64,000 nucleotides of DNA. Origin: an uncultured Bdellovibrionales bacterium (GTDB lineage: Bacteria; Patescibacteriota; Minisyncoccia; Moranbacterales; UBA1568). The translations under genes and the position numbers were made by a program. The notes below the pieces were generated by a model. The model did not search any database. It was not told the origin of the DNA and worked only from the letters and a program-made list of their open reading frames with translations. Location: the NCBI GenBank assembly GCA_964530135.1, contig CAZGXN010000001.1:4110-68109 (forward strand). Reading direction: 5' to 3'. How positions within the stretch are numbered: the first letter of the stretch is position 1; each line of letters begins with the position of its first letter. Shown here piece by piece: positions 5,674 through 41,767 of the stretch.

Positions 5674-6780
5674 TTACTTCCGCTTATCGGAGAGAGAGTA
5701 GATATTTTTTCCTACCTTTGTGAAAAAACTATTGAGGTTGATGATGACCGTCGAACGCTTTACTTGACGGACCTTCATCACGGCCTTCAAGAGCTCTTCG
5801 CGTGTCATAGGATTAACATTCTCTTGGAGGATAGAAGAAAGGACTTCGCGAACAGTCCCAGGACGAAACCCCCAATCAGAAAGAGCATAGGTACCCCGCC
5901 CAACTAGAACAAAGCGTTCATCTTTGATGAGTTCATTATGCACGGTTTGCGGATGTGTCTTCTTGCCCGTTTTGTAGAGGCCGTGCTCATCAATGAGACG
6001 GGCAATTTCACGGAAATGCAGTGGCTGTTTCATCACCTGGAGTATCAGATGGGCACGCTCGCGAGTCCCACGGGGACGGATAGTACTCCAATGGACAAGT
6101 CCGTAACGACCAAAAACATTTTTCTCAATTTCAACAGCTGGAACAAGCAACGACTCAAACATTTCTTTCGTCATATCAGTCGCTCCGGATTTCTTTATAT
6201 ATCGAGCATAGAGATCGTCCAATGACTGAGTCTCAGCCGCCTCCTTGAGAATACCAACGACCAATACTACGAATGCTTCCCATTCTTGAAGAGAAAAATC
6301 ATCCGTCATAATAATCGCTTTGTGTCGCGTGTTCGCCTTGCTCATCCGGCATCCAGGAAAAGCTGAGAGTAGGGCGAGGAGCGCCTTTTCTTCCGAGACA
6401 CTGCCATTTCCCAAGTCTGCGAGAACCGCATCGATCGTCATGATCCCACCTCGTTGTCTCACTCGCTCAATGACACGATTCACCAATGCATGATCTGCTT
6501 CATGGGCCATAATTTCCCGAATCCGCCGCATGATGACATCGACGATCTGACGGACTCGCTCGCGCGTGATACCATGTGTTTTCCCAATTTCTTCGAGTGT
6601 CTTTTCGGTACCATCTGTAATACCAAAACGCGCGCGTGTAATGACACCCGAACGCTCAGGGAAAGACGCCAATAAAGCATCAAAAAGATCTTCGGCCGTA
6701 CGCGTACTTGACAGACGAGCAGAATCAATAGTTTTCCTTCGTTCGGACATAAAAAAATCAATAATTATGATCTCTAACAA
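5674..6780 (-). CDS. DNA-binding protein with a sigma-70 region-4-like HTH and a C-terminal HARE-HTH domain
   Basis: TLEEIGKTHGITRERVRQI is a classic sigma70 r4.2 HTH. The C-terminal PLHFREIARLIDEHGLYKTGKKTHPQTVHNELIKDERFVLVGRGTYAL matches the HARE-HTH pattern. The likely start is the second Met (MSERRK). Confidence 0.6.
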   Translation of the reverse strand: MLEIIIIDFFMSERRKTIDSARLSSTRTAEDLFDALLASFPERSGVITRARFGITDGTEKTLEEIGKTHGITRERVRQIVDVIMRRIREIMAHEADHALVNRVIERVRQRGGIMTIDAVLADLGNGSVSEEKALLALLSAFPGCRMSKANTRHKAIIMTDDFSLQEWEAFVVLVVGILKEAAETQSLDDLYARYIKKSGATDMTKEMFESLLVPAVEIEKNVFGRYGLVHWSTIRPRGTRERAHLILQVMKQPLHFREIARLIDEHGLYKTGKKTHPQTVHNELIKDERFVLVGRGTYALSDWGFRPGTVREVLSSILQENVNPMTREELLKAVMKVRQVKRSTVIINLNSFFTKVGKNIYSLSDKRK

Positions 6781-6882
6781 CGCTTCATATTAACGCATAT
6801 TACCATATTTTGTCAAGAGTTGACGAAGAGTGAGGCACCTCAGACCAACTACCGTGTCTATCATCCTTAATCTTGGATTTGT

Positions 6883-6911
6883 TTGCCATTGATAAGTATG
6901 TCTTGTATAAT
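6883..6911 (+). promoter_or_regulatory. sigma70-like promoter (TTGCCA-N17-TATAAT) for the 6964 gene
   Basis: ttgcca at 6883-6888 and tataat at 6906-6911. It lies 52 nt upstream of the ATG. Confidence 0.45.
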
Positions 6912-6963
6912 TTGATCAGGAGAATACAAAGAATTCTCACAAACACGGAAAGAAATAAAAAAT

Positions 6964-7728
6964 ATGACTGATGTTTCTACTGAACCAAGTCTTCAACCCG
7001 TTCCAGATGGGGGCGCTAAGATTCAGGCCCTTCGGGAAATGATTCTCAATGCTGAACGCACTATTCAAAGTGCCAAGGCGATGCTCCTTCAGATTGAAGG
7101 GAAGAAGAAAACTGGTCGCCCCAAGAAATCAGAAGATTCTGCACTCGGCACAATCATTGAGGGCACTTTCGATGGACAAATCATGCTCGGTACTGATGGG
7201 AAGCAATACCCCGTCCCAGCAAACTATGCCTCCAAATCGAAACTCGTCGAAGGCGACATGCTAAAGCTCACTATCACGCCGGATGGATCGTTTATCTACA
7301 AACAAATCGGCCCCATCGATCGTCGCCATGCTATCGGTATCGTGAGTCAAGATGAAAACGGAAATTATCACATCGTCGTCGATGGTGAACCCTATCGCGT
7401 ACTCTTTGCTTCAATTACCTATTTCCGCGCTGAACCAGGCGATGAAGTCGCTGTCATGCTCCCACGAGGACTTTCCGCCTCCTGGGTCGCTATAGAAAAT
7501 ATCCTCCAAAAAGGCACGCTCGGTACACCCGTCCCACCCGTGAAGCCAGCGAGCGAACGCCATCTCCACGCCGACTGGAAAAAAGATCTCGCTGAGGAAA
7601 AAATGCCTGACTCTGATACCGCGACGACAATGACCCCGGCAGCGACCGCAACAGCCGATCTCTCACCGCTCGATGCCTGGGTGAAAGACATGGAAGCGAT
7701 CGAAAAAGAAATTGCCGAAGGTCGCTAA
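6964..7728 (+). CDS. hypothetical protein with two ~55-aa beta-rich internal repeats and a basic GKKKTGRPKK segment
   Basis: Internal repeat GQIMLGTDGKQYPV...LVEGDMLKL versus GNYHIVVDGEPYRV...EPGDEVAVML. Composition is clean. Confidence 0.5.
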   Translation: MTDVSTEPSLQPVPDGGAKIQALREMILNAERTIQSAKAMLLQIEGKKKTGRPKKSEDSALGTIIEGTFDGQIMLGTDGKQYPVPANYASKSKLVEGDMLKLTITPDGSFIYKQIGPIDRRHAIGIVSQDENGNYHIVVDGEPYRVLFASITYFRAEPGDEVAVMLPRGLSASWVAIENILQKGTLGTPVPPVKPASERHLHADWKKDLAEEKMPDSDTATTMTPAATATADLSPLDAWVKDMEAIEKEIAEGR

Positions 7729-7766
7729 TCACAAATCCAACTCTTAACCCAATCGACAATTATTCT

Positions 7767-8246
7767 ATGGACACTAATTCCGTGCCGAATCCTGAAGTTA
7801 CCCGCTTCTCCAAGGCCTGGTTCATCCGGACAATAAAGCAGTTTTCAAAGTTTATTATCGTAGGTGGCGTAAACACCGGCATTGATGTCGTTATTTTGCG
7901 GATACTCGTCGGCGTTACTGGTATTGTCGGTGGCGGCGGTATCGTCGTTCTCAACGCTATTTCATTCTCAGTAGCTGTCGTCAACAGTTACTTCATGAAT
8001 AAGCTGTGGACATTTGAAGACAAGACTCGTACCGAAAAGGAGCCTTTCAAATTTTCTCAGTTCTTCATCGTCAGTCTCATCGGCATCAGCATCAACAGCG
8101 GCGTTGTATATGTCATCACGACATTTACCCAACCCATACTCGGCATCTCCGAAGCGAACTGGGTCGTTGTCGCCAAGCTTTTCGCCACTGGATTCTCGCT
8201 CGTTTGGAACTTTATTGGTTACAAACTCTTCGTCTTCAAAAAATAA
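7767..8246 (+). CDS. GtrA-family membrane protein
   Basis: FSKFIIVGGVNTGIDVVIL...VNSYFMNKLWTFEDK is the GtrA-like signature. About 4 TM helices. Confidence 0.7.
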   Translation: MDTNSVPNPEVTRFSKAWFIRTIKQFSKFIIVGGVNTGIDVVILRILVGVTGIVGGGGIVVLNAISFSVAVVNSYFMNKLWTFEDKTRTEKEPFKFSQFFIVSLIGISINSGVVYVITTFTQPILGISEANWVVVAKLFATGFSLVWNFIGYKLFVFKK

Positions 8247-9983: not shown

Positions 9984-10055
9984 TGGGGAGTAGCCAAGCG
10001 GTAAGGCAGGGGCCTTTGAAGCCTCCATGCGATGGTTCGATCCCATCCTCCCCAG
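9984..10055 (+). tRNA. tRNA-Gln (anticodon TTG)
   Basis: Hand-folded cloverleaf. Acceptor tggggag/ctcccca, D-arm gcc..ggc, anticodon stem ggggc/gcctc with loop ctTTGaa, T-arm gatgg-ttcgatc-ccatc. It is near-identical to the E. coli tRNA-Gln 5' half. CCA is not encoded. Confidence 0.85.
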
Positions 10056-10058
10056 CTA
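10041..10058 (+). repeat. direct repeat copy 1 (tcccatcctccccagcta), the 3' end of tRNA-Gln
   Basis: Exact 18-bp match to 10825-10842. Confidence 0.8.
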
Positions 10059-12724: not shown

Positions 12725-13078
12725 TTACCAATTCTTCCCATCAAACGGTGTCAGCGTGAGTTTTGAAATATCTACACCACTGAGCGTTCGGACATTGAGA
12801 GCGACTGTCTCCGTGCCCGTGGCTGGGTCCTTCCCCTTTCCAAACGGCTCTACACCACAAATACGGCAGAAGAGATGAGCGATGAATTTTTTATTGAAAC
12901 AGTACTCCGTAAGTTCCGACTCACCGGACAAGAGCTTGAACTGCGCCGCCGGAACAAAGTTTAGAATGAGGCTTTTCACCGCACAGTGCGAGCAATTACA
13001 CTCCAAAATCGAACCTAAATCACTCTCCACTTCAAAAGTTACGGCCCCACAGTGGCATTTTCCCTGATATTTAGCCAT
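12725..13078 (-). CDS. GFA/CENP-V-family zinc protein (glutathione-dependent formaldehyde-activating-like)
   Basis: The GKCHCGAV...CNCSHC...CRICG cysteine pattern is typical of the GFA domain. Confidence 0.7.
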   Translation of the reverse strand: MAKYQGKCHCGAVTFEVESDLGSILECNCSHCAVKSLILNFVPAAQFKLLSGESELTEYCFNKKFIAHLFCRICGVEPFGKGKDPATGTETVALNVRTLSGVDISKLTLTPFDGKNW

Positions 13079-13233: not shown

Positions 13234-13431
13234 ATGACTGGTACTATCAAGACGCTCACGGATCGTGGATTCGGTTTCATCGCTCGCGAAGGCGAGACGA
13301 AGGACCTGTTCTTCCACTCCAAAGAGCTCTCCGGTGTAACATTCGATGAGCTCAAAGTTGGCGACACTGTCAGCTTTGAAGTCGTTGATGGCGAAAAAGG
13401 TCCGGCCGCGGTCAATGTGACTCGCGCCTAA
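13234..13431 (+). CDS. cold-shock protein (CspA family)
   Basis: MTGTIKTLTDRGFGFIAREGETKDLFFH contains the RNP1/RNP2 motifs. 65 aa. Confidence 0.9.
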   Translation: MTGTIKTLTDRGFGFIAREGETKDLFFHSKELSGVTFDELKVGDTVSFEVVDGEKGPAAVNVTRA

Positions 13432-13768: not shown

Positions 13769-15355
13769 TTAGAGATCATTGCCTGAATAGGAAAGATTGA
13801 AGCTCTTATTGATCAATGGAAAATCCGGCACCATATCACTCGTTACAAGATATGGAAAAACCGGCCAATTCAAGAAAGATGGGTCCCGCACCTTCACGCG
13901 TGTAACCGCGCCGACAGAATCCGTAGCAATGAAGTAAACAATATCCCCGCGCCAACCTTCGACGAGACCAACTGCATGCGCATTGGGCGTGAGCGAATTG
14001 ACTGTGGCAGCAATGGGTCCATTCTTTGAAGCCTCTTGTTCAATCGCTTGATGCAAGATTTTGAAAGATTGGTACACTTCGCGCTCCCGAATCTTGTATC
14101 GAGCAAAGACATCGCCAGCCGTCTCAGTAGGGACAGAAAATTGAATCCTCTCATACGCCGCATATGAAAAGTCTGTCCGCGCATCGGCTTTGATACCGAT
14201 GGCCCGTGCGCCGATCCCCACAATCCCATGATCTATCCCAATAGAACGTTCTATTCGACCCGTGTTTTGAAGTCGATTGAGCAGTGAGAGGCTTTCCGAC
14301 ACTGCCTCCATTATTTCCCGAAAATCCTGTTCGAGATCCATACTATCTGCCTTGAGAGCTATTAGTTGGTCATTGGAGATATCCTGTGTCAATCCGCCTG
14401 GGAGGAGCATGCCCCGCAGAAAACGGTGGCCGGTGAGTCGCTCGTTCCATTCCATTACTCGTTCACGAAGACGCGTCCCTTGACTCCCCCCAAATGCGAG
14501 GCCCGTGTCAAGCATGATAAACGCAAGATCATTGAAATGATTGGCTAATCGTTCGAGCTCAGCGAGTATTGTCCGGAGATAGATCGCCCGCCGAGGTACT
14601 TCCACTGATGCGAGCGTCTCAATAGCCTGACAATAAGCCAGGGCATGATGAAATGAACTATCACCTGAAATGCGTTCCGCTAATGCCACTCGTTTTTCAG
14701 ATGAGAGCACTTCAAAAAGTTTTTCCGTTCCTTTGTGGACATAACCCAGGCGTGATTCGAGACGGAGGATCTCTTCACCCAGGACACTGAAACGAAAGTG
14801 CCCGGGCTCAATAATGCCAGCATGGACGGGACCGACGGGTATTTCATACACCCCTTCGCCCTCATAGCGCTTGAAAGTCGCCCATTCCTTTTCCTGAGGC
14901 TCAGTGATCACCGTGTTCCACTGAAACTCTTTCCTGAGCGGATAGATATCTTTGGGAAAATTTTCAGCATGGAGAGTTATCCGTTCTGGTTGAGGGTGTC
15001 CATCTGGATTAAGCCCAAAAAAAGTCAAAATCTCGCGCTCATACATGGCAAATTCTTGGTCTTCGGGCGTGAGTGAAGGAAATGAAGGCTTGTCAGCATC
15101 CACTGTGAGGTATGGTATAAGAAAACAATTTTCCTTTGGCACACCAAAGACATAGTAGATTCGAAAATTCCTGTTACTTGCTCGCTCATCGGTAGCAGAA
15201 ACTGTTTTGAGCGGGAGACTGTGTGTTTTCTTCAAAGTACGGATAACTTGAGGAAGAGCCTCTGCAGATACCTCAAATAACACCCGATTTCCTTCGACTG
15301 TTGGGTTGGGAATATCGAGACCAAAACGCTGGAATACGCGGAGTGAGTCAATCAT
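13769..15355 (-). CDS. NuoC-NuoD / [NiFe]-hydrogenase large-subunit-like protein (Ehr-type) lacking both Ni-Fe cysteine motifs
   Basis: An N-terminal 30-kDa (NuoC-like) domain is fused to a NuoD/HycE-like domain. Where RxCGxCxxxH is expected it reads RISGDSSFHHALAYCQAIE. The C-terminus is SFNLSYSGNDL with no DPCxxC motif. Confidence 0.8.
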   Translation of the reverse strand: MIDSLRVFQRFGLDIPNPTVEGNRVLFEVSAEALPQVIRTLKKTHSLPLKTVSATDERASNRNFRIYYVFGVPKENCFLIPYLTVDADKPSFPSLTPEDQEFAMYEREILTFFGLNPDGHPQPERITLHAENFPKDIYPLRKEFQWNTVITEPQEKEWATFKRYEGEGVYEIPVGPVHAGIIEPGHFRFSVLGEEILRLESRLGYVHKGTEKLFEVLSSEKRVALAERISGDSSFHHALAYCQAIETLASVEVPRRAIYLRTILAELERLANHFNDLAFIMLDTGLAFGGSQGTRLRERVMEWNERLTGHRFLRGMLLPGGLTQDISNDQLIALKADSMDLEQDFREIMEAVSESLSLLNRLQNTGRIERSIGIDHGIVGIGARAIGIKADARTDFSYAAYERIQFSVPTETAGDVFARYKIREREVYQSFKILHQAIEQEASKNGPIAATVNSLTPNAHAVGLVEGWRGDIVYFIATDSVGAVTRVKVRDPSFLNWPVFPYLVTSDMVPDFPLINKSFNLSYSGNDL

Positions 15356-15360
15356 ATAAT

Positions 15361-16812
15361 TTAGTCAGTGAGATCTTGACGAATAGATTCGAGGAGTGCT
15401 GAGAGTGGCTCAGGGAGATGCCAGCTAAGGACAAGCAGGGTCACAAGAATTAGTACTGCTGGGAGCTGTGTGAGGAAAGAACTCTCTCCGCGTTCGATCC
15501 CCTCCGACACCGACCCATACATCAAAGCGGTTACGAAACGGAGGAGTCCAAAAAACATGATACTGAGTGCTCCAAGGAGTGCCACTGCAAGCCAAGGTGA
15601 AAACTGAATGGCAGCTGAAAGGATAAGAAACTTCGTCGTGAAAAGCGCGAAGGGTGGCAGTCCAGCGAGGATAAGGATACCAACGAAGAAAAGTGGCCCA
15701 GAAAGTGGGAGCGCTGTGAGGACACCCCTGACATTCTTGAGCTTGGTCGAACTGTAACAAAGGAAAATGTTGCCCGCGAGCAGGAAAAGCATCGACTTGA
15801 TCAGCGCATGATAGAGCATATGGAAAAGGCTCGCGAGAATTCCAACACCTCCTAAACCAAAACCAAGAGTGATGAGGCCCATATGCTCAATGCTTGAATA
15901 CGCCAACAAACGCTTGTAATTCTTCTGGATAAATATAATGAAGGCTGCAAGGAAAATTGAGAGTATCCCGAAAAAAATAAAGAGGCTACTGGTAAAGTGA
16001 GCATCGTCACCCAGGGCAATATCTGTAACCAACTTCCACCGCAACACTGCAAAAAGCGCGACATTGAGGAGTACGCCTGACAAAAGGGCTGAGATCGGCG
16101 AAGGTGCTTTGCTGTGCGCATCTGGAAGCCAAGTATGGAGAGGTGCCAGACCAATCTTGGTCCCATAACCGATAAATACTAAAACAAAGGCAATTTTGAC
16201 GGCTCCTGATGGCAATGTTCCTGCCGCCGCAATAAAACCAGCCCAATCAGTCGCACTCGAACGCTCGCCCTGAAGCGCGATAAAAATAAGTGTCCCCAAG
16301 AGACCAATCAGAAGACCGAGTGCATTGATGATGAGGTATTTCCAGGCAGCCTCGGTCGCACTGGGCTTATTATAAAAACTGATAAGAAAGACTGTTGCTA
16401 GCGTCGTGGCTTCAATAGCGATCCAGGTAACGATTGGATTTGTGGTTGAAACGGCCAGATACATGGCAAAAAGAAACAGCTCCAACAAAACAAAAAACTG
16501 ACGCACCCGGCGTGGTCCAATGATCCCCTTGGCTACCTCAGCGCGAAGATACCCCACTGAATAGAGTGAGACAAAAAAACCAACCAACGCGATCAAGAGT
16601 ACGAGGTACACTGATAAATTATCCAGTGCCAGGCCGCCCGGGTGAATTGTCGGCGTGTTCGCTGACGGCGAAATCACGAGTCGAACAGCGAGTGTGAGTG
16701 CAATACCCGCGGCCGCAATAACACTTCCTTCTATGAGACGAATTTTCTTTGCTGGTAAAAGAAATACAAAGAGGGCAATCAATGCAGGGAGGAAGTTCAG
16801 GATAAATATCAT
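15361..16812 (-). CDS. NuoM/NuoN/MrpD-like antiporter-type membrane subunit
   Basis: Polytopic membrane protein carrying GLAPLHTWLPDAHSKAPSPISALLSG, the conserved motif of the NuoL/M/N-MrpA/D-HyfB/F family. Confidence 0.8.
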   Translation of the reverse strand: MIFILNFLPALIALFVFLLPAKKIRLIEGSVIAAAGIALTLAVRLVISPSANTPTIHPGGLALDNLSVYLVLLIALVGFFVSLYSVGYLRAEVAKGIIGPRRVRQFFVLLELFLFAMYLAVSTTNPIVTWIAIEATTLATVFLISFYNKPSATEAAWKYLIINALGLLIGLLGTLIFIALQGERSSATDWAGFIAAAGTLPSGAVKIAFVLVFIGYGTKIGLAPLHTWLPDAHSKAPSPISALLSGVLLNVALFAVLRWKLVTDIALGDDAHFTSSLFIFFGILSIFLAAFIIFIQKNYKRLLAYSSIEHMGLITLGFGLGGVGILASLFHMLYHALIKSMLFLLAGNIFLCYSSTKLKNVRGVLTALPLSGPLFFVGILILAGLPPFALFTTKFLILSAAIQFSPWLAVALLGALSIMFFGLLRFVTALMYGSVSEGIERGESSFLTQLPAVLILVTLLVLSWHLPEPLSALLESIRQDLTD

Positions 16813-16823
16813 ATAAGAGAGGA

Positions 16824-17483
16824 TTAGTCTTCGGTAAGGTGGCGCATCTCACGAGTATCAAGCGATCCAAATTGACGGTACACGAGACTCAAAAATGTAT
16901 AGGCGATCATCATCCAGATAAGAATATCGAAAATGATACCCATCTCAAGTGCGAAGGTCTGCTTCACGCCAAGGAAAACAGCAAAGAGTATGATGCCATT
17001 CTCAAGTGCCAGGACAGCGATAATCTGTGCGAGTGCCCCTTGTCGATTGATAAGGAGAAAGATAGCGATGAGTACCATCGCGATATTGAAGACAAAAACA
17101 TCCGGCGTAACGGATGACACCACCCACAACGAACTAAAGGTTGAGGAAGCTGCAAAGATGATGAGGCCGAGAAGTACAACCAATGTCAGTGGCATCGAGA
17201 GATAACTCGCACTTGCAACGAGATAACCGAAGCGCTGAATGAGACGCGTGAAAAAGTACGGCGCCAGAATCACTTTAGCGATGAGTGTAATACTACCCAC
17301 AGCTATCAAACTGCGTTCCCCTTCTGCTAGACCAAGAAGTATGAGTACGCCCGCCACCGACGCTGACTGCAGCGCATACAGACGAATGGTATACTTTGTG
17401 CTCCGCACCAGATGCAAAAGTACCACTGTGAGAAAAGCCACGAGATTGAGAATAAGTGCAAGATTGAGGAGAGAAGCTTCCAT
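16824..17483 (-). CDS. small polytopic membrane subunit (HyfE/NuoK-like, tentative)
   Basis: 219 aa with ~6 TM helices, embedded in the operon. Its size is similar to hydrogenase-4 component E. Confidence 0.5.
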   Translation of the reverse strand: MEASLLNLALILNLVAFLTVVLLHLVRSTKYTIRLYALQSASVAGVLILLGLAEGERSLIAVGSITLIAKVILAPYFFTRLIQRFGYLVASASYLSMPLTLVVLLGLIIFAASSTFSSLWVVSSVTPDVFVFNIAMVLIAIFLLINRQGALAQIIAVLALENGIILFAVFLGVKQTFALEMGIIFDILIWMMIAYTFLSLVYRQFGSLDTREMRHLTED

Positions 17484-17487: not shown

Positions 17488-18468
17488 TTACAGTGTCAAT
17501 GAGACCGTGAGTACCACAGCAACCATACCGAGTACAAATGAAGTAAAGAGTAAATCTGGAACACGGAAGATACGGAATTTTGCCATCAGCGATTCGATGA
17601 GCGCAATAGCGCCGAGAAAACAAACGGTTTTACCAGCAAAAATAAATGCTGGGAGGAAAAGTGTTTGAAATGAAACAAACTCAACTGCGACCCCCCAAGG
17701 AAAGAAAATATTAGCTCCCAATGCGATAAATATAAGAAGTTTATTCGCACTTGCCCATTCCATGAGCGCGAGCCGTTTGCCGGAATATTCCAGCAACATC
17801 GCTTCATGAATCATCGTCAGCTCAAGATGAGTCGCTGGATTGTCTACTGGAAAACGGGAATTTTCAGCAAGGAGAGCGAGCGCAAAAGCGAGGAAAGCAA
17901 CAAAGAGCGGAAAAATTACAGAGAGCGGAAGTGTGCCGAGCTGCGCTACAATATCGAGGACATATCCGGTCCCCGCAAGAAATGAAGCCGGAAGAAATGA
18001 AAAGATGAGTCCTGCTTCAGCCAAGGCTGCTACCATCATCTCTCGGCTTGAACCAAAACCACCAAAGCCACTTCCCGCATCGAGACCAGCCAATGCCAGA
18101 AAGAATGTCATCAGCCCAAAGAGGTAAACAATGATGAGAAAATCACCCGTAGCAGTCAGAGCCCACTCCGGATAGCCTGGAATCGCTGGGGCAATTGCCG
18201 TTACCAGCGGCACAGTCGCACCAAGCAGAAGTGTGATAGCAAAGATGATGTAAGGAGCAAAACGCGTAATCCACGAAGCATCCTCTGAGAGGACTTCATC
18301 TTTTGCGAAGAGCTTGCGCAAATTGCGATACGGTTGAAAGATGTCGGCTCCGACCCGACCTTGGAGACGCGCTTTCAGACGACGAATAATCCCAATACAC
18401 AGCGGCGACAAAACTGGAACCGCAACGATTTGAAGAATAAAGAAAAAGAATTCCATAGGTAGAGTCAT
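17488..18468 (-). CDS. NuoH/HycD/EchB-family membrane subunit
   Basis: ~8 TM helices. Its length and hydrophobicity match the complex-I subunit-1 family. The stop overlaps the upstream gene (18468). Confidence 0.7.
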   Translation of the reverse strand: MTLPMEFFFFILQIVAVPVLSPLCIGIIRRLKARLQGRVGADIFQPYRNLRKLFAKDEVLSEDASWITRFAPYIIFAITLLLGATVPLVTAIAPAIPGYPEWALTATGDFLIIVYLFGLMTFFLALAGLDAGSGFGGFGSSREMMVAALAEAGLIFSFLPASFLAGTGYVLDIVAQLGTLPLSVIFPLFVAFLAFALALLAENSRFPVDNPATHLELTMIHEAMLLEYSGKRLALMEWASANKLLIFIALGANIFFPWGVAVEFVSFQTLFLPAFIFAGKTVCFLGAIALIESLMAKFRIFRVPDLLFTSFVLGMVAVVLTVSLTL

Positions 18469-20531
18469 CAGGATTGCGCCGCCCAGAGCAAGGCACCGAT
18501 GAGGGTGAGGGCGAAATAAAAAATATACATATTCACATTCCCCGTCTGGACACGCCGCACTCGATCCGCGAAATAATGAATGGATCGGCCGATTGGTCTG
18601 TATATCCGCTCATGGTATATGTCATGTAAACCCGTCTCAATCCCAACTGTCCGAATAAAATACCGCGTCCGTTCATCGTGATATTCCACTGTCGACTGCC
18701 TCGTTGGTCGGAGAATACCTTGGAAAATCGTTACGAGTGAACGAGAGAAACTCGTCGCTGTAATCTCGCTTCGACCGGAAAGCGGAAAACCACAGTCCCA
18801 GGTCGGACCAATAACTACCCGCCGTTCCCGAGTCATGAAACGAACAACCAAGTACAAAAGTCCTGTAATAAGTCCTAGGAGAACCGCTACTGTCATCAAT
18901 GGAAGAATATCGGCAAAGGCGTGCCGGGAAGCAACAATTTCACGAAAAGGAAAGTACAGCGTTGCTGAATCGGTCAATCCAATACTCGCTACTATACCCG
19001 TCAAACCAGCCAAAACAGCGGGTGATGACAAACCAAAAAGTAGGGCCAAACCCGCGAGGAGGCCCATAGGCAGGAGCATCGGCCAAGCGACCTCGGTTCT
19101 GGCTTCTGCAACCACCACTCGTGGCCGGGCCAAAAATACTGTTCCAAAAACTTTGACAAAACAGGCGATGGCCAAACCGCTGGTGAAAACAAGGCTTGAG
19201 AGAGCAATAAGGAAGGTGATTTTCACCGCTAGGGGTGCGCCCAATACGCCAGCAAAAAGAACTTGGAAAACCAGCCACTCACTCACAAATCCATTGAGGG
19301 GTGGGAGAGCAGCAATCGCGAGTGATCCCACCAAGAAAAAAGCCGCTGTATATGGCATGACGCGTATGAGTCCACCATAAGACTCCATGTTCCGCGTCCC
19401 AGTAACACTGACGAGTGCTCCGGCGCCAAAGAAGAGGAGTGATTTGAAGATCGCATGATTCACCATGTGATAGAGAGCGGCTGCCAGTGCGAAAAGCGCC
19501 ACCTGTTCCTGACCCAATGCAAAGAGCGTCAGCCCAGCCCCAAAGGCAATCGTGATAATTCCAACATTTTCTACCGTACTGTATGCGAGGAGACGCTTGA
19601 GATCACGCTCCGCGTTCGCGTAGAGAATACCGAGCAATGCCGATACCGAACCGATAAGCAGAAATGTCACACCCCATTCAACCCGCGCGCCCTGAAAAAA
19701 ATCAAAGAAAAACCGAAACAGCATAAACAGCGCGGTTTTTACCATGATGCCCGACATAAGCGCCGAAACATGCGACGGCGCCGCAGGATGCGCTTCTGGA
19801 AGCCAGGTATGAAGTGGGATGAGGCCAGCCTTAGTGGAAAATCCGATGAGGGCAAACCCGAGAATAAAAAGTTCGAGCTTCGGCGGTACCGTTCCAAAAA
19901 CCGTACGCCACACATCAAAGGAAAGTGATCCTGTTGCTTTATATGCCAAGAGACAAGCGAGCATGATGAACGCCGTGCCAAAATGTGTCATGAGGAAGTA
20001 GAGAAATCCAGCTCGAACACTTTCAGCCTTCTCACGTTCAAAAACAACAAGAAAGTATGAGGCGAGCGACATCAACTCCCACACCAGAAGGAAAAAAAGT
20101 GCCTGATTGGCTATCGGTACGAGTAAGAGACTCCCGACAAAAAGATTGTAAAAAAATCCAAATGAACCAAGTCGACCACTCCCGATATACTGCTGCTGGT
20201 ACTGATAACCATACACTGAAGCAAGGAGTACCAGGCTAGAGGCTAGTCCCAGAAAAAAAGATCCCATTCCGTCGATACGGAACGAGAGTTCAAGCAATGG
20301 CAATGGCCCCATATACACCCAAGACAGTCCCCGACCCTGCAGGAGCACTGTTGCCGCTATTGCAAGACCAACCAGTGATCCGAGTGCCGCGAAACCGTGA
20401 GCGAGAATATTCGCGAGCCGACCACCATCCTGTCGCCTCGCTTCGGCCAAAAGCGACGCCACTGCGCCAAAGAGGAACAGTCCGACAAGGAGAAACAATG
20501 CATTTTCAGTCATGAAGAATTCCATAATCAC
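18468..20531 (-). CDS. NuoL/HyfB/HycC-like antiporter-type membrane subunit
   Basis: 687 aa. GLIPLHTWLPEAHPAAPSHVSALMSGIMVKT is the family motif. Confidence 0.8.
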   Translation of the reverse strand: MIMEFFMTENALFLLVGLFLFGAVASLLAEARRQDGGRLANILAHGFAALGSLVGLAIAATVLLQGRGLSWVYMGPLPLLELSFRIDGMGSFFLGLASSLVLLASVYGYQYQQQYIGSGRLGSFGFFYNLFVGSLLLVPIANQALFFLLVWELMSLASYFLVVFEREKAESVRAGFLYFLMTHFGTAFIMLACLLAYKATGSLSFDVWRTVFGTVPPKLELFILGFALIGFSTKAGLIPLHTWLPEAHPAAPSHVSALMSGIMVKTALFMLFRFFFDFFQGARVEWGVTFLLIGSVSALLGILYANAERDLKRLLAYSTVENVGIITIAFGAGLTLFALGQEQVALFALAAALYHMVNHAIFKSLLFFGAGALVSVTGTRNMESYGGLIRVMPYTAAFFLVGSLAIAALPPLNGFVSEWLVFQVLFAGVLGAPLAVKITFLIALSSLVFTSGLAIACFVKVFGTVFLARPRVVVAEARTEVAWPMLLPMGLLAGLALLFGLSSPAVLAGLTGIVASIGLTDSATLYFPFREIVASRHAFADILPLMTVAVLLGLITGLLYLVVRFMTRERRVVIGPTWDCGFPLSGRSEITATSFSRSLVTIFQGILRPTRQSTVEYHDERTRYFIRTVGIETGLHDIYHERIYRPIGRSIHYFADRVRRVQTGNVNMYIFYFALTLIGALLWAAQS

Positions 20532-21070
20532 GCAGCCTGAATTGTCCGATTATGATCGATGGTCTCCAATATCTCGAGAACTGCTTTGAGTATAACTTTT
20601 GGTGCCGGTGGATCACCCGAAATTTTAAAATCTACCGGAATGACATCGGCTACCCGATCATACACGGCGTATGAACCGCGATAGATGCCACCATCGATCG
20701 CGCCATCCCCGACCGCGACGACCCACTTAGGTGTCGGCATCGCAGCATAGGTCCGCCGAAGACCTTCAGCCATATTGCGGCTCACTGGGCCGGTCACAAA
20801 GAGCATGTCCGCGTGCCGAGGCGAAGCCACAAATTGCACGCCAAAACGCTCAATATCGTAATAGGCATTGGTGAGCGCAACGAGTTCCTGTTCTTCAGCA
20901 TTACTCGAACCAGCGGCGACCTCACGAATCGCGATAGAACCACCGAACAGTTTATTGGCACGTTCTTTAATCGCTTTGCCGAGAGTCTCAATCTCGCTGA
21001 TTCCACGAATATCACGCTCACTTTTCACCTTGAGCGGTGTCGTAAAGATTTTTTTCAGCATCTGATACAT
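20528..21070 (-). CDS. NuoB / hydrogenase small-subunit-like protein with no cysteines at all (no Fe-S cluster N2 ligands)
   Basis: YDIERFGVQFVASPRHADMLFVTGPVSRNMAEGLRRTYAAMPTPKWVVAVGDGAIDGG aligns to the NuoB core YDxxRFG...SPRQAD...MPEPKWVISMGSCANGGG. All four Cys positions (CC, C, CPP) are replaced: AAGSS, GDG, DPP. Confidence 0.75.
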   Translation of the reverse strand: MYQMLKKIFTTPLKVKSERDIRGISEIETLGKAIKERANKLFGGSIAIREVAAGSSNAEEQELVALTNAYYDIERFGVQFVASPRHADMLFVTGPVSRNMAEGLRRTYAAMPTPKWVVAVGDGAIDGGIYRGSYAVYDRVADVIPVDFKISGDPPAPKVILKAVLEILETIDHNRTIQAA

Positions 21071-21175: not shown

Positions 21176-21793
21176 CTACAAGAGACTCTCTCTCCGATCA
21201 CGCCGATCACGCCAGTACTCAAACACTCCTGGCAAAACCGAAAGAAAAATGATCAATACGACAATCGGTAAGAGGTAACGATCAATATCTTCAATGAGGC
21301 TCCCCAAATAATAGGCAATGAGCGTGAGACCAACCGACCAAAGTACAGCACCGATAAAATTAAAAAAGGCAAAAGTCCCATAATGCATCCGTGCTACGCC
21401 AGCGACGATCGGCGCAAAGGTCCGAACAATCGGAATGAAACGAGCCAGAACAATAGTCTTGCCGCCATAGCGCTCATAGAATGCTTGTGCTTTCAAGATG
21501 TGCGACTTGCGGAACAGGAGCGAGTCCTCACGGGTAAAAATCTTGGGCCCGACGAATGCACCAAACCAATATCCAACCATATTACCTGTGAAAGCCGCTA
21601 TAAAGAGAATGATAAGTAGGAGCGGGAGGGAGAAAAATCCCTGCGCTGCAAGCACGCCCGCGACAAAGAGGAGACTATCACCTGGGAAGAAGAACCCAAG
21701 AAAAAGGCCAGTTTCCGCAAAAACGATCGCGAAAAGCCCAACATACCCGATCGTCTTTATCGCCTGCACCATGTCGATACCAAAAAATTCCAT
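21176..21793 (-). CDS. DedA-family membrane protein
   Basis: The FFPGDSLLFVAGVLA and GKTIVLARFIPIVRTFAPIVAGVARM DedA/SNARE-associated motifs are present. Confidence 0.75.
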   Translation of the reverse strand: MEFFGIDMVQAIKTIGYVGLFAIVFAETGLFLGFFFPGDSLLFVAGVLAAQGFFSLPLLLIILFIAAFTGNMVGYWFGAFVGPKIFTREDSLLFRKSHILKAQAFYERYGGKTIVLARFIPIVRTFAPIVAGVARMHYGTFAFFNFIGAVLWSVGLTLIAYYLGSLIEDIDRYLLPIVVLIIFLSVLPGVFEYWRDRRDRRESLL

Positions 21794-21803: not shown

Positions 21804-23894
21804 CTAGATCGAGTACGCCTCGTCTTTCAGTTTATTATAGAGCATATTCGCTACTTTGCGCGGCAACATCGCGTTCTCCAGAAGCTCGCCCAGCATCCGC
21901 TCTTCGGTTTTGAAGAGCGCATAGCGACCGAAAGACTCATTTAGGTAGGCAAGTTCGGTGCCTATCTTGGTAGCTACTGCATCGCGTTTCTGCTCAGCAT
22001 CGGCCCGAAGCCCCTCGTAGAGCGCGATCACGGATTGGATCGAGGCATCATCCCCGTAAAGCCCGGGGAAGCGTCCCGAGATCGACTTTAGGCGTCGGAG
22101 TACCTTGGCCAACACTACTTCCTGAGCGCGGTAATAACGATATTCCTCGAGGAGCTCCTGCTTCGGGGTCTTCGGGTAGAATTTCTTTCGTAACCTCATA
22201 ATAAGCGTCTCAAACCAATCCTGCTGGAACCGCTCGGCATGACCCATCACCTGCTCTTTCCCCTCCTCGACACGGTCGGTCTGAATAGCGATCTTATTCA
22301 GGATTTCCTTGTATTCCGATTCCGAAATCTCCTGATAAATGTACAACTCCTTCAGAAAGCGTTTTTCCATACCAAGCGCATATACCTGGAGCGCACGGCC
22401 CATATCGGCGGGGATTGCGTCAAAGAGGGATTTGCAAGAAGCAGCTGATTGCTCATAGCGCTCCGTATACTCGCGTTTCAAACGCTCAAAGATCTCATTC
22501 TTTACATACCCCTTGCTATGGAAGTCCCCGAGTTTCTCGAGCGCCTCCTGATAAACCAGAGCCGAACACTCATGATACTCCACAGTCTCAAGCGGCGTCA
22601 GGTCGGATAACTTCATTTTTTTGATCATCGTTCCGATCGAGGTCGCTTTGATGCAAAGCGTGAAGTAGATGCAGCCGATCGTGATCGCTGCGATAAACTC
22701 CTTCACGGTAAAGTCATAACTCCAGCCCGGAAGTGTGAGCGTATCCGGGATGAGGAGCACCATCGTAACTGCAAGCGCACCACGCAAACTCCCCCACGCG
22801 AGAAGATGCTGCCAGGAGATTGGGATCGGTTTTTCCTTTTTCAATCGATTGACCATCGCCACCACCGGATAGATCGAGAGCGCACGCCCAATGAGAACGA
22901 CGACGACTGTGATGAGCATCGGAGCGATGAATTGATCGAACTGTATCGGGAGGTCAGCGAAAAGAAGCCCCATGAGAATGAAGACTAGTGAATTGGCCAC
23001 GAAAGCGAAATAACCCCAGAACTTCTCCATATATTCCTCGACGCGTGGCGAGATCTTGAAACGACCGTAATTGCCAATCACCATCGATGCCATAACCGTC
23101 GCGATGATCGATGAGAACTTGATTTCTTGTCCGAAAAGCACGAGATGATGCGATATGAGTTCGGAAAGGATGAAAGTGAGGTGTGCCACAAGCATGGTCA
23201 GTGTAATCTCGATATGCTCATTATCCTTCACTTTGCCGATGATTTTTGAAAAGATGAAGCCCATGAAAAGGCCAAAAGCGACACCCCCCAGGACCATAGT
23301 CGTAAACATGAAGAGTCCGCCGAGAATACTGCCGAATCCGGTAAATCCCGCAACCGCTACTTCAAGGACGATGAGGAAAAGAGCAAGCGAGGTTCCATCA
23401 TTAAAAAGACTCTCCCCTTCGAAAATGAGTGAGAGCCGGCGCGGTACACCAAACTCCTTGAAGAGTGCGAGCACTGCTACCGGATCTGTCGCTGAGATGA
23501 GCGCACCGAATATAAGGGTTGCCATGAACGGTACCGGAAAGCCGATGAGTGTCAGACCCACGTACAATGCAAAAGCAACAAAAAACGCCGAGATGAGTAG
23601 GCTCACAATCGAGAGCCACGAGATCGAACGAATGTTCTCGGCCATCTCCCGCATATTCATGTTGTAAGCCGACTCAAAGATAAGTATCGGCAGAAAGACG
23701 AAGAAGAGAAGTTCCGGTGTCAGCTGGAAACTCTTAATGAAATGGAAAAGAGGGAAGTTTGAGAGCGGGACTAAGACCGAACCGACGATGACCAAAAGCA
23801 CCGTGTACGGAACTTTCAAACGGCCAGCGACAAAATATGTCCCGATACAAATAAGCATAAGCACCGCGACCGCGAGGACGACTTCGAGCGACAT
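21804..23894 (-). CDS. CPA1-family Na+/H+ antiporter (NhaP-type) with a large C-terminal cytoplasmic domain
   Basis: The ATDPVAVLALFKEFGVPRRLSLIFEGESLFNDGTSLALF signature is present. ~12 TM helices. Confidence 0.8.
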   Translation of the reverse strand: MSLEVVLAVAVLMLICIGTYFVAGRLKVPYTVLLVIVGSVLVPLSNFPLFHFIKSFQLTPELLFFVFLPILIFESAYNMNMREMAENIRSISWLSIVSLLISAFFVAFALYVGLTLIGFPVPFMATLIFGALISATDPVAVLALFKEFGVPRRLSLIFEGESLFNDGTSLALFLIVLEVAVAGFTGFGSILGGLFMFTTMVLGGVAFGLFMGFIFSKIIGKVKDNEHIEITLTMLVAHLTFILSELISHHLVLFGQEIKFSSIIATVMASMVIGNYGRFKISPRVEEYMEKFWGYFAFVANSLVFILMGLLFADLPIQFDQFIAPMLITVVVVLIGRALSIYPVVAMVNRLKKEKPIPISWQHLLAWGSLRGALAVTMVLLIPDTLTLPGWSYDFTVKEFIAAITIGCIYFTLCIKATSIGTMIKKMKLSDLTPLETVEYHECSALVYQEALEKLGDFHSKGYVKNEIFERLKREYTERYEQSAASCKSLFDAIPADMGRALQVYALGMEKRFLKELYIYQEISESEYKEILNKIAIQTDRVEEGKEQVMGHAERFQQDWFETLIMRLRKKFYPKTPKQELLEEYRYYRAQEVVLAKVLRRLKSISGRFPGLYGDDASIQSVIALYEGLRADAEQKRDAVATKIGTELAYLNESFGRYALFKTEERMLGELLENAMLPRKVANMLYNKLKDEAYSI

Positions 23895-37697: not shown

Positions 37698-39173
37698 CTA
37701 GGTCGCCAGTTTCTTCTCGAGCAATTCCTTCACAATACCAGGATTGGCCTTGCCTTTTGTGGCTTTCATCACCTGACCAACCAAGTACTGAAGCGCATTC
37801 TGTTTGCCGGCCCTAAAATCCGCAACGGACTGCGTGTTGGCAGCCAGGACCGCATCTACAACTCCCTCGAGTTCACCGCTATCGCTCATCTGCGCGAGGT
37901 TGAGCCGCTCGATGATATGCGACGGATCATTATCTTCACCCTTGTACATTTCTGCGAGGACTGTCTGAGCCGCACTCGAGTTGATTACCCCGTCAGTAAC
38001 GACGACAACAAACTCAGCGAAGTTTTCTGGCGTAATAACGAACTCAGAAATCGGTTGGTCTATTTCGGCCAAATGTTTTCGGACTTCAGTGATGAAGTAA
38101 TTCGCCGCCAGCTTGATCGCTTTCGGGAGCGCTGCCTTGAGTTCACCGCCGTCCTGCTTGGCGCCGAGCTCGCTCACAACTGCCTCAAAGTACCCAGCAA
38201 TGTCTTTGTCTTCGGTAATAATATTGGCATCCATATCCAAGAGACCAAACTCTGTCATAAACCGTGCACGCTTCGCATCAGGTAACTCTGGCAGAGACTC
38301 TTTCAACGCTTTGATATACTCACCCGTAAAATCAAACGGCGGAATATCCGGTTCGGGAAAATAGCGGTAATCATGGGCCGATTCCTTTTTCCGCTGTGAG
38401 ACCGTCATGTTACGGTTCTCGTCCCAACCGCGCGTCTCTTGAATTATTTTTTCTCCATTTTCAAGTGCTTCGGTCTGCCGTTTAATCTCGTACTCGATCG
38501 CACGCTCGACCGCTTTAAATGAATTGATGTTCTTCACTTCTACCTTGGTTCCTGACAAACGATCCGCTCCGACTTCATGAAGCGAGATATTTACCTCACA
38601 GCGCATCTGTCCTTTCTCCATATCAGCATCCGAAACCTCAAGAGAGCGAAGAATCTGGCGCAGTTTCTGGCAAAATGCACGGGCATCCTTGGCTGTACTG
38701 AAGTCCGGCTCGGTTACGAGCTCCATGAGCGGCACTCCAGCGCGATTATAATCGATCAGCGTATAATCAGCTCCGTCCGGATGAATGAGTTTTCCGGTAT
38801 CCTCCTCAAGATGGATGCGGGTAATATTGAACGGCTTACCGTCGATCTCCATCGTCCCACGCTCGCAGAACGGCTCGTCGAACTGTGAGATCTGATAGCC
38901 CTTCGGCAAGTCGGGATAGAAATAATTCTTGCGGTCGAATTTGGAATGGAAACGCAACGCGCAGTTGAGTGCGAGGCCAACTTTCTGGACGGAGCGGATC
39001 GCCTCCACATTCGGCACCGGAAGCGCTCCCGGCTGTCCGGTACAAACATGGCAGACATGAACATTCGGCTCCGTCTCAAGACCGAGACTGTTCGTGCAGC
39101 GACAAAACATCTTGGAGCGTGTTTTGAGCTCCGCGTGAACTTCCATGCCAATTGTCGGTTCGTACTGTGCCAT
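37698..39173 (-). CDS. gatB: Asp/Glu-tRNA(Asn/Gln) amidotransferase subunit B
   Basis: YEPTIGMEVHAELKT...MFCRC is the GatB N-terminus. Confidence 0.9.
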   Translation of the reverse strand: MAQYEPTIGMEVHAELKTRSKMFCRCTNSLGLETEPNVHVCHVCTGQPGALPVPNVEAIRSVQKVGLALNCALRFHSKFDRKNYFYPDLPKGYQISQFDEPFCERGTMEIDGKPFNITRIHLEEDTGKLIHPDGADYTLIDYNRAGVPLMELVTEPDFSTAKDARAFCQKLRQILRSLEVSDADMEKGQMRCEVNISLHEVGADRLSGTKVEVKNINSFKAVERAIEYEIKRQTEALENGEKIIQETRGWDENRNMTVSQRKKESAHDYRYFPEPDIPPFDFTGEYIKALKESLPELPDAKRARFMTEFGLLDMDANIITEDKDIAGYFEAVVSELGAKQDGGELKAALPKAIKLAANYFITEVRKHLAEIDQPISEFVITPENFAEFVVVVTDGVINSSAAQTVLAEMYKGEDNDPSHIIERLNLAQMSDSGELEGVVDAVLAANTQSVADFRAGKQNALQYLVGQVMKATKGKANPGIVKELLEKKLAT

Positions 39174-39188
39174 AACCTTTATGATGTA

Positions 39189-39614
39189 TCAGTGTACCCC
39201 AGTTGAACCGAAACCTCCAGTCCCGCGGGTTGTCTCATCCAATTCGGCTACTTCCTCAATGTCCGGCCGCTCGACACGCTGGATGAGAAGCTGAGCGATT
39301 TTCTGCCCCTTCTTGACCTCGAATAGTTCCTGCCCGAGATTGACGAGACCAATCAGGTATTCGCCCCGGTAGCCACTATCAATGACGCCACCGAGCGTCT
39401 TCACGCCGAACTTGTGTGATAGCCCACTCTTGTCCCAGACCAAGCTGACATAGCCATCCGGAAGAGCTATCGCTATTCCGGTTGCGACCGAGCGTCGTTC
39501 TCCAGGCTTCAACACAAAATCCTCGACGGAGTACAGATCCATTCCCGCATCACCAGAGTGCGCGAAAGAAGGCATGATAGCGTCCGGATGCAGTTTTTTT
39601 ACTCTGATATTCAT
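39189..39614 (-). CDS. dut: dUTP diphosphatase (start taken at MNIRVKK)
   Basis: The GDAGMDL and GVIDSGYRGE dUTPase motifs are present. Confidence 0.85.
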   Translation of the reverse strand: MNIRVKKLHPDAIMPSFAHSGDAGMDLYSVEDFVLKPGERRSVATGIAIALPDGYVSLVWDKSGLSHKFGVKTLGGVIDSGYRGEYLIGLVNLGQELFEVKKGQKIAQLLIQRVERPDIEEVAELDETTRGTGGFGSTGVH

Positions 39615-40303
39615 AGCTTTTTCTGAATAACATTCCAGACTTTTTCTGCAATTGTTTCGCGCGAGAGCATTTCCCCTTTTCGCGCACAATCAATTTTTGT
39701 CCAAGCATTCAACTTCTTCACCAATTTGAGCGCATTCTCCCGACTCTCAGTGAGATGCTTGGGATTACTTTCGGCTTGATCTTTCTGTCCTTTTTTCAAG
39801 TACACCTTTTTCCGTTTCTGTCCCTCGAGGTCGAGAAGTTTCTGCGACACTTCAACTGATACATCGAGATAAATAATTGTGTCCGGACGTGGAAGGCCGA
39901 AGACGCCGTGTTCCATCTGATCGAGCCACTGGAGGAACTCTTTCTGCTTTTTCGGATCGTGGATCTTGCCACCTTGATGAATCTGATTCGCGCTCACGTA
40001 ACGGTCGAGCACGACGACATATCCTACCTTGAGCCAAGCCTCGATCTTGGACTTTGATTCGAATCGATCTGCCGCATAGAGTACCGATACGATATGCGGA
40101 TCGAGTGCGATGAAGTCGCCAAAGTCCCCAGCGAGACAGCGACCGATAAGCTGACCGAAATGATTTGCTTCGTACTGTGGAAAGTCGAGTGTTTTCGTTT
40201 TGTACCCCTCGGCTTTCAAACGCGACAGAAGCAATCGAGTCTGGGTCGCTTTGCCCGAACCGTCTGAGCCATCGATCACGATGAGCTTGCCATGTTTCGC
40301 CAT
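39611..40303 (-). CDS. tmk: thymidylate kinase
   Basis: KLIVIDGSDGSGKATQ P-loop and DRY-like motif. Confidence 0.85.
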   Translation of the reverse strand: MAKHGKLIVIDGSDGSGKATQTRLLLSRLKAEGYKTKTLDFPQYEANHFGQLIGRCLAGDFGDFIALDPHIVSVLYAADRFESKSKIEAWLKVGYVVVLDRYVSANQIHQGGKIHDPKKQKEFLQWLDQMEHGVFGLPRPDTIIYLDVSVEVSQKLLDLEGQKRKKVYLKKGQKDQAESNPKHLTESRENALKLVKKLNAWTKIDCARKGEMLSRETIAEKVWNVIQKKL

Positions 40304-40304
40304 A

Positions 40305-40859: not shown

Positions 40860-40885
40860 AGACGATATTCGTTTGATTTTCTTTA

Positions 40886-41764: not shown

Positions 41765-41767
41765 GCA

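Follow-up and report, generated by a model that had tools for sequence, protein, structure and literature searches.

A Hyf-like Ehr operon of a CPR bacterium encodes a NuoB-type small subunit predicted to have lost its iron-sulfur cluster

The complexes known as Ehr, short for ‘energy-converting-hydrogenase-related’, were reportedly named by Coppi in 2005, with EhrA-D, S and L of Geobacter sulfurreducens as an example, and are said to have been surveyed by Marreiros in 2013. They have been reported in Geobacter, Nitrospira, ammonia-oxidising archaea, Chloroflexi, sister lineages of Cyanobacteria and bacteria of the Candidate Phyla Radiation (CPR). Published accounts give their function as unknown, and most authors assume a role in electron transfer; oxidoreductase partners have been proposed for other Ehr complexes (PMC6349859). 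In CPR bacteria a monophyletic Ehr clade has been described, whose large subunits have no cysteines to bind metal and “likely cannot interact with H2” (Jaffe et al., 2020; PMC7304191). Here we analyse a 64,000-nucleotide stretch of DNA recorded under the name of an uncultured Bdellovibrionales bacterium (contig CAZGXN010000001.1, positions 4,110 to 68,109; hereafter ‘the window’). It carries a six-gene operon that, judged by sequence, encodes a Hyf-like Ehr complex from a CPR bacterium whose nearest database records bear the label Moranbacteria, and the small subunit of this complex has none of the cysteines that would hold an iron-sulfur (Fe-S) cluster. Ehr in CPR bacteria is already known, and full loss of the small-subunit cluster with conserved acidic or polar replacements, in a large clade that is mostly monophyletic, is a variant that we did not find described: no mention of a cluster-less small subunit was found in the Ehr literature covered, which did not include Coppi 2005 and Marreiros 2013.

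The small-subunit gene (20528..21070, minus strand) is an intact ATG-to-stop open reading frame (ORF) of 180 amino acids without a single cysteine, exactly where a first-pass annotation, made from the letters of the sequence, had placed a cysteine-free homologue of NuoB. The protein matches Pfam PF01058 (Oxidored_q6, NADH:ubiquinone oxidoreductase 20-kDa subunit) with an E-value of 2.2e-23 and 82.8 bits (cutoff 27) over profile positions 5-127 of 128, and the NCBIfam NuoB model NF005012 with 119.3 bits, just over its cutoff of 116. Its nearest solved relative is MbhJ of the Pyrococcus membrane-bound hydrogenase (6cfw_J, E 6.5e-24); others are Thermus Nqo6 (2fug_6, 6e-23), E. coli HycG (7z0s_G, 1.7e-20) and eukaryotic PSST. 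The conserved core that had spoken against a random ORF is present in the motifs YYDIERFG, SPRHAD and MPTPKWV. An AlphaFold2 model built from 41 homologues reached a mean predicted confidence (pLDDT) of 74, with only the loop 54-72, which would hold the first two ligands, poorly predicted (pLDDT <50), and a Foldseek search of the PDB with this model returned PSST/NuoB/MbhJ chains (E about 1e-13, probability 1.0, TM-scores 0.6-0.77). Taken at the level of sequence and predicted fold, the ORF is a true member of the NuoB/PSST/[NiFe]-hydrogenase small-subunit family.

Alignment with Nqo6 and with the Mbh small subunit leaves the homology clear and all four ligand cysteines replaced, as the first-pass annotation had claimed. 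GSCNGCDIE of MbhJ stands opposite GSSNAEEQE, which puts S56 and E59 at the first two ligand positions; AIGAC of MbhJ and GAC(111) of Nqo6 stand opposite VGDG, with G123 at the third; and VPGC(140)PP of Nqo6 stands opposite ISGDPP, with D153 at the fourth. Having no cysteine at all, the protein is predicted to be unable to hold the N2/proximal [4Fe-4S] cluster. The annotation’s reading of conserved structure without electron transfer holds up in both parts: the modelled fold is that of NuoB, and the absence of electron transfer, which we infer from the lost ligands, is consistent with an operon and flanks that encode no other electron-carrying subunit.

As a statistic, the bare cysteine count is uninformative, because 30% of the ORFs in the window are cysteine-free (16 of 53 with at least 150 amino acids); cysteine makes up 0.71% of window ORF residues, and at that frequency a stretch of 180 amino acids would lack it with a probability of about 0.28. 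What is not random is that the ligands are lost at all four positions, each invariant elsewhere, and that their replacements are conserved. We compared the 120 database proteins closest to the small subunit (61-100% identity; the few with a source name are labelled Moranbacteria or Patescibacteria, with one labelled Undibacterium). Cysteine is absent from 110 of them, the other ten having one or two at scattered sites, while E59 is retained in 120, D153 in 119, G123 in 117 and S56 in 113, and the complete pattern S-E-(D)G-D occupies the ligand positions in 112. Alignment A2, with 41 sequences at 61-86% identity, shows no variation at E59, E60, Q61, E62, D122 or D153. Across 16 cluster-less loci the small subunit leads the other five in conservation, both in mean identity to the window copy (65%, against 46-60% for the others) and in the share of invariant columns (32%, against 6-23%). 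It and the residues in place of its ligands are thus under strong purifying selection, which argues that it is functional, not vestigial.

The small-subunit gene is the first of six tightly packed minus-strand genes, separated by gaps of -4 to 11 nucleotides; its stop overlaps the start of the NuoL/HyfB-like gene by 4 nucleotides. The operon reads as follows:

20528..21070, minus strand: small subunit (NuoB/PSST/HyfI/MbhJ homologue), without Fe-S ligands (S56, E59, G123, D153 in their place; D122, E60 and E62 nearby invariant)
18468..20531, minus strand: antiporter-like subunit of the NuoL/HyfB/HycC type, 687 amino acids; Glu of transmembrane helix (TM) 5, Lys of TM7, Lys of TM8, Lys of TM11 and Glu of TM12 kept
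17488..18468, minus strand: NuoH/HycD/HyfC-like membrane subunit, 326 amino acids; Ehr-specific TM5-6 loop VDNPATHLELTMIHEAMLLEYSG; Glu of GSSRE and of AEN kept
16824..17483, minus strand: HyfE-like small membrane subunit, 219 amino acids; C-terminal part resembling NuoK; two Glu in the membrane (ALENG, ALEMG)
15361..16812, minus strand: second antiporter-like subunit, HyfF/NuoN/M type, 483 amino acids; TM5 Glu, TM7 Lys, TM11 Lys and TM12 Lys kept, Asn at the TM8 Lys position
13769..15355, minus strand: fused NuoC-NuoD / HycE-HyfG-like large subunit, 528 amino acids, without the four NiFe cysteines and without quinone ligands

The large subunit matches HycE best (2.8e-70), the NuoH-like subunit HycD (9.8e-38) and the NuoL-like subunit HycC (9.4e-61). 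Among curated models, those of HyfB, HyfF and HyfE fit best, HyfB with 616 bits on the NuoL-like subunit, and the NCBIfam scores of the membrane and large subunits all stay under the equivalog cutoffs. Residues of the antiporter-like subunits were read from alignments with MbhH and HycC. In the large subunit, RISGDSS lies opposite RVCGICG of HycE and NLSYSGND opposite DPCYSCTD, and the Nqo4 quinone ligands H38 and Y87 correspond to I182 and G231. Its beta1-beta2 loop (HAGIIEPGHFRF) is invariant, and the TM5-6 loop of the NuoH-like subunit, which replaces the EAEQE motif of HycD, is almost so (VDNPxTHLELTMIHEAM(I/L)LEYSG). A single position of the peripheral module is Cys in 9 of 16 sequences, with no other conserved Cys there. 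The parts that in complex I pass conformational change between cap and membrane domain are thus the most constrained here, with all electron-carrying elements gone. No ferredoxin-like subunit, NuoEFG or Hyp maturation gene was found in the operon, its flanks or the annotated ORFs of the window, no NuoI, NuoA or NuoJ in the operon or flanks, and no formate dehydrogenase or maturation gene near the operon. A promoter scan returned 12 sites, no real excess over the 10.9 in shuffled sequence, and a terminator scan added nothing.

Among described systems, Ehr is the closest: the same six subunit types occur, without a ferredoxin subunit; the large-subunit signatures HAGIIEPGHFRF, R(I/V)SGD(S/T)(S/T) and NKSFNLSYSGNDL are found in 79 of 80 metagenome Ehr loci, with no CxxC NiFe motifs; and the NuoH-like loop VDNPxTHLELTMIHEAM is identical. 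The differences are that ordinary Ehr small subunits keep the four cluster cysteines that are replaced in the window and its clade, and that the window operon has the small subunit first (B-L-H-E-N-CD) and not last, an order that some cluster-keeping Ehr operons share. E. coli Hyf and Hyc (PDB 7Z0S) provide the best solved or curated match for every subunit, and HycE has the same NuoC-NuoD-type fusion, whereas the window complex lacks their NiFe ligands, small-subunit cluster and HycF/HyfH or HycB/HyfA ferredoxins. More generally, the L1 RxCGxCxxxH and L2 DPCxxC motifs of group 4 [NiFe]-hydrogenases (Hyc/Hyf/Ech/Mbh) are missing from the large subunit, as are the 2x[4Fe-4S] ferredoxin-like subunit (HycF/EchF/MbhN) and Hyp genes from the operon, flanks and annotated ORFs. 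With complex I (Nuo/Nqo) the operon shares homologues of NuoB, C, D, H, K (in part), L and M/N, alike in fold and in the order of magnitude of their similarity, and the Lys/Glu chain of the antiporter-like subunits, but not NuoE, F, G, I, A or J, cluster N2 or the His38/Tyr87 quinone ligands. Like Mrp, it has two MrpA/MrpD-type subunits, a NuoK/MrpC-like piece and no redox cofactors, and TM5 Glu, TM7 Lys and TM12 Lys/Glu are kept, the deviation being the Asn at the TM8 Lys of the second subunit; unlike Mrp, it has a NuoH-like subunit and a peripheral NuoB/C/D cap, and no MrpB, E, F or G.

How exceptional the loss of the cluster is within Ehr became apparent when metagenome contigs were scanned with an Ehr large-subunit alignment. 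The scan yielded 80 loci, 61 of them with a small-subunit gene. NiFe cysteines are absent in 79 of the 80, while the small subunit has all four Cys in about 55 of the 61 and is cluster-less in six, which places the window, as far as sequence tells, in a derived minority that lost the single [4Fe-4S] cluster that ordinary Ehr keeps. Two Gammaproteobacteria-labelled loci (L012 and L013; small subunit 51-52% identical) likewise retain the four Cys beside a large subunit with the same Ehr signatures. Loss of the NiFe cysteines is general to Ehr, whereas loss of the small-subunit cluster marks only the window’s clade; the first-pass annotation, which had singled out the latter as the clearest diagnostic of the system, was right to do so. 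An apparently compensatory change in the large subunit, R314-G315 together with E227, had seemed specific to cluster-less forms when set against L012 and L013, but the same residues occur in at least 49 cluster-keeping metagenome Ehr loci and we discarded it. R314-G315 aligns with H169/H170 of Nqo4, with R314 opposite H170 and beside H169, the His near cluster N2.

A search from the copy in Cryobacterium, described below, uncovered a second large cluster-less group, in which the pattern is D-C-D-D in 81 of 120 sequences, with labels that include Vogel-, Staskawicz-, Magasanik- and Levybacteria, Chloroflexi and Firestonebacteria; 19 of the 120 have A, V, T, G, P or F where the others have their lone Cys. 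A rough neighbour-joining tree built on the NuoD part, which carries no support values, joins 23 of 24 cluster-less loci in one clade that has these two groups as its subclades and leaves L102 outside, while a similarly rough tree of small-subunit representatives, also without support values, has the cluster-less forms in about four groups. Tentatively, these sequence trees point to one main loss of the cluster plus possibly a few others. Representatives at 50% identity, P0127, P0143 and P0265 among them, include further patterns without the four Cys, DAAD and SAES in Chloroflexi/Dehalococcoidia-labelled proteins and still others, according to which the cluster may have been lost more than once; P0265 itself has the pattern DEDS, is 278 amino acids long and bears the source name ‘small subunit/ferredoxin’. 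At a Firestonebacteria-labelled locus (L028), a cytochrome c552 gene of the NrfA type (6349-7980) ends 20 nucleotides before the cluster-less small-subunit gene in the same orientation, and a carbon monoxide dehydrogenase/acetyl-CoA synthase (CODH/ACS) gene lies just downstream of the operon (15256-16543).

The same cluster-less six-gene operon is present in a cultured actinobacterium, Cryobacterium sp. Y50 (NZ_PJJM01000102.1, between contig positions 94140 and 114649; L010 10001-17179). There it has 50.9% G+C between flanks of 63-64% that encode actinobacterial genes (PNPase, LLM-class oxidoreductase), which points to horizontal gain of the operon as an intact unit, possibly from a CPR donor; the Cryobacterium copy has only one close relative in the protein database, at 96% identity. 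This carrier makes Ehr function open to genetics and biochemistry.

Two further minus-strand genes lie directly upstream of the operon in the window:

21176..21793, minus strand: DedA/VTT-family membrane protein, 105 nucleotides upstream of the operon on the same strand
21804..23894, minus strand: CPA1 (NhaP-type) Na+/H+ exchanger, 10 nucleotides upstream of DedA, present there in part of the clade

DedA occupies the same position in all Moranbacteria-type loci examined. The E. coli DedA proteins YqjA and YghB depend on the proton-motive force and are required for alkaline tolerance. DedA and the CPA1 exchanger are possible members of the system. The exchanger has a C-terminal part of about 270 amino acids; its Pfam domain stops at residue 425, and TIGR00831 (a_cpa1) reaches 538. 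A near-consensus -35/-10 pair, TTGACA-16-TAGGAT, lies by the exchanger gene at 24151-24124.

We favour, with a probability of roughly 0.5, the reading that the complex is a redox-independent, gradient-coupled ion transporter that keeps a cofactor-free cap for coupling or gating. On this account the complex of the window’s clade has lost its last redox cofactor and would no longer transfer electrons; it would instead be a self-contained secondary cation/proton transporter in the manner of Mrp, with which a fermentative cell would regulate its pH and ions. The cap, NuoB-like and NuoCD-like and free of cofactors, would sit on the NuoH-like subunit and couple or gate its ion path, and an acidic, polar patch of S56, E59, E60, E62, D122 and D153 would fill the former cluster site. 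Alignments show that ion-carrying charged residues are retained in the two antiporter-like, the NuoH-like and the HyfE-like subunits. The same six genes recur with changing neighbours in at least 20 loci, the six-gene block being intact in every locus not cut by a contig end, and the lack of any constant neighbour of the operon from one lineage to the next speaks for a self-contained machine. Those neighbours that are there relate to ions and pH: the Na+/H+ exchanger and DedA in the window, a carbonic anhydrase or SulP permease at other loci. CPR bacteria, moreover, generally lack quinones and respiratory chains.

Several observations weigh against this reading. In the second antiporter-like subunit an Asn takes the place of the TM8 Lys, and of the three Glu in the EAEQE motif of HycD two are gone from the TM5-6 loop of the NuoH-like subunit. 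A plain antiporter would need no peripheral cap (there is none in Mrp), but constraint is strongest in the cap, and within it in the small subunit; this constraint, which the favoured reading leaves unexplained and which is its chief weakness, hints at an active role, for example as a ligand- or metal-binding or docking site. Ordinary Ehr, with near-identical large-subunit motifs, keeps the cluster, which means that either a function common to both can do without the cluster or this clade has changed its function. Finally, the adjacency of DedA and NhaP sits in a long conserved synteny (RNase HII, L32, NusB, RNase III, SMC, S16, L10, L7/L12, [NhaP], DedA, Ehr) and is not present at other CPR loci, and it may have been inherited vertically without being functional. 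A large, well conserved clade has dropped the only redox centre left to it, with the whole complex still under strong selection, which indicates that at least this form of Ehr works without electron transfer; that the shared Ehr core does so as well is raised as a possibility. Such a naturally ‘redox-dead’ complex-I-type machine, with cap, NuoH-type channel and antiporter-like subunits intact, would be useful for asking what the cap contributes to coupling.

Other explanations differ widely in how well they fit. There is a negligible chance that the loss is a sequencing or assembly artefact in which a frameshift masks a Cys-containing frame. The ORF has no break and follows the family profile colinearly over residues 28-178, overlapping ORFs in other frames are short shadows, and the protein aligns end to end with orthologues of 172-192 amino acids that bear the same substitutions; three recorded contigs encode an identical protein (P0001), and hundreds of independent assemblies give the same substitutions. 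A frameshift is excluded because of this end-to-end colinearity and the many independent assemblies, and the PF01058 match disposes of the other weakness to which the first-pass annotation had pointed, a lack of significant similarity to the NuoB family. The replacement residues are conserved across 240 sampled orthologues and therefore reflect neither sequencing error nor decay. It is also highly improbable that the operon is what remains of a hydrogenase or Ehr complex in decay and has no present function, even though every cofactor ligand is gone and CPR genomes are reduced: the six ORFs are intact in at least 20 loci from several phylum-level CPR lineages and one actinobacterium, small-subunit identity is 55-88% with the replaced residues invariant, Cryobacterium acquired the operon recently by horizontal transfer and kept it intact, and reduced genomes seldom keep 7.3 kb of dead genes. 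Very unlikely, too, is a complex that is still redox active, or chemically driven, by way of a new site, where Ser, Glu and Asp (Asp3Cys in the sister clade) would bind another metal (Fe, Mn, Zn, Mg or Ca) and this metal, or an unlinked partner enzyme docking on the cap, would supply the driving reaction. Oxidoreductase partners proposed in the literature for other Ehr complexes (PMC6349859) would fit such a scheme, as would the cytochrome c552 family gene 20 nucleotides upstream in L028. The replacements are, moreover, not random: in each of two large clades (S-E-(D)G-D and D-C-D-D) they hardly vary and are acidic or polar, and they lie in the most conserved subunit; however, the lone Cys of the sister clade is dispensed with in the 19 of 120 sequences noted above, no partner gene is common to the loci, and there is no electron path, neither a ferredoxin-like subunit nor NiFe or quinone ligands in the large subunit being present. 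In addition, we know of no [4Fe-4S] cluster that is held without Cys ligands.

The remaining alternative starts from a CsoSCA-like gene (carboxysome shell carbonic anhydrase catalytic domain, PF20686, E 3.4e-10) that, at some loci outside the window, adjoins the cluster-less small-subunit gene and is divergent from it:

L007 7375-8418, minus strand: CsoSCA-like gene, Paceibacterota-labelled locus
L020 7619-8662, minus strand: CsoSCA-like gene, Paceibacterota-labelled locus
L008 8790-9869, minus strand: CsoSCA-like gene, Saccharibacteria-labelled locus
L021 8610-9668, plus strand: CsoSCA-like gene, unlabelled contig
L025 10001-11044, plus strand: CsoSCA-like gene, unlabelled contig

Energy-coupled CO2 hydration, in which the Ehr membrane module and the ion gradient would make a partner carbonic anhydrase one-directional and the cluster-less cap would serve as scaffold or for coupling, is an unlikely account of the window operon; CO2 would be trapped as bicarbonate, or the reverse, as in NDH-1MS/CupA and DabA/DabB. 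Alignment with 2FGY indicates that the CsoSCA-like protein keeps Cys-x-Asp-x-Arg and His...Cys, that is, the Zn ligands and the Asp/Arg dyad, and the four copies by cluster-less operons (L007 and L020 counted as one) are 52-99% identical to the L007 copy; the two genes have therefore stayed neighbours while diverging considerably. A word-indexed search of 5.8 billion proteins returned 13 clusters of this rare family, and six of the nine loci inspected that bear it are Ehr-adjacent and a seventh is cut at the contig edge (in L024 the gene lies at such an edge). At L040 (12802-15873) and L051 (12364-15462) a cluster-keeping Ehr operon is followed by a SulP permease gene (PF00916), a CsoSCA-like gene and two-component regulators, which suggests a link of Ehr to inorganic carbon beyond CPR bacteria. 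There are precedents in the NuoL-like DabB with DabA and in NdhD3/F3 with CupA. In DabAB and cyanobacterial NDH-1MS (CupA/CupS), as at these sister loci of the window, complex-I-type antiporter-like subunits are linked to a beta-like carbonic anhydrase; the Ehr-linked enzyme differs from theirs in being CsoSCA-like (PF20686) and not DabA (PF10070) or CupA, in lying outside the window, and in that its link is gene adjacency. Against this account, no CsoSCA-like gene was found in the 64-kb window by tblastn or near the Moranbacteria-type or D-C-D-D (clade-B) loci, a CsoSCA-like neighbour occurs at only two of the 80 metagenome Ehr loci, and in the CPR loci the gene is divergent and outside the operon. 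A metagenome scan with a CsoSCA-like alignment (A1) gave no matches. Distant homologues, at 39-42% identity to the L007 copy, lie instead beside divergent AI-2E-family transporter genes (L022 8696-10946, L023 1707-3955). The wider proposal, by analogy with those precedents, that all Ehr complexes including the cluster-free form are non-redox, ion-gradient-coupled inorganic-carbon/pH machines working with a CsoSCA-like carbonic anhydrase, and at the two cluster-keeping loci with a SulP bicarbonate-type permease, we consider quite unlikely. Were it true, complex-I-type modules would have been recruited for vectorial CO2 hydration a third time independently, besides NDH-1MS/CupA and DabAB, the loss of the cluster in the CPR clade would be a natural proof that the Ehr core mechanism can do without electron transfer, and the acidic patch in place of the cluster may bind a cation. 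For the role of Ehr, carbonic anhydrase and SulP genes that turn up repeatedly next to it offer a concrete hypothesis. In L022, narGHJI and a gene for a SLAC1-type channel are also close by. Operon neighbours with C-A-D-G and H-x-P-C motifs at L009 and L011 were considered as carbonic anhydrases and rejected, having no Pfam match and a probability of 0.15 in an hhalign comparison with the CsoSCA-like pair.

Four loci titled ‘uncultured Bdellovibrionales’ (L003, L005, L006 and L014) have the Moranbacteria-type synteny [NhaP]-DedA-Ehr and small subunits that are 58-70% identical, and L006 also carries the ribosomal protein genes of that synteny; the label of these four is probably wrong. Directly downstream of the operon in the window are genes for a cold-shock protein (13234-13431, plus strand), a Cys-rich zinc-binding GFA-family protein (12725-13078, minus strand) and a HAD hydrolase, and GFA, HAD and cold-shock domain (CSD) genes recur by the operon in the related loci L015, L016 and L019.

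Annotated ORFs in the rest of the window belong to housekeeping genes, and tRNA and Rfam scans of the window returned only tRNA-Gln (9984-10056). Two adjacent minus-strand ORFs of 222 and 178 amino acids (49045-49713 and 49723-50259) have no Pfam match at E 1e-4. A compact deoxynucleotide-metabolism block on the minus strand (37698-43881) comprises genes for dCTP deaminase, thymidylate synthase, dihydrofolate reductase (DHFR), PAP2, a kinase-like P-loop protein, thymidylate kinase and dUTPase, and is followed by GatB.

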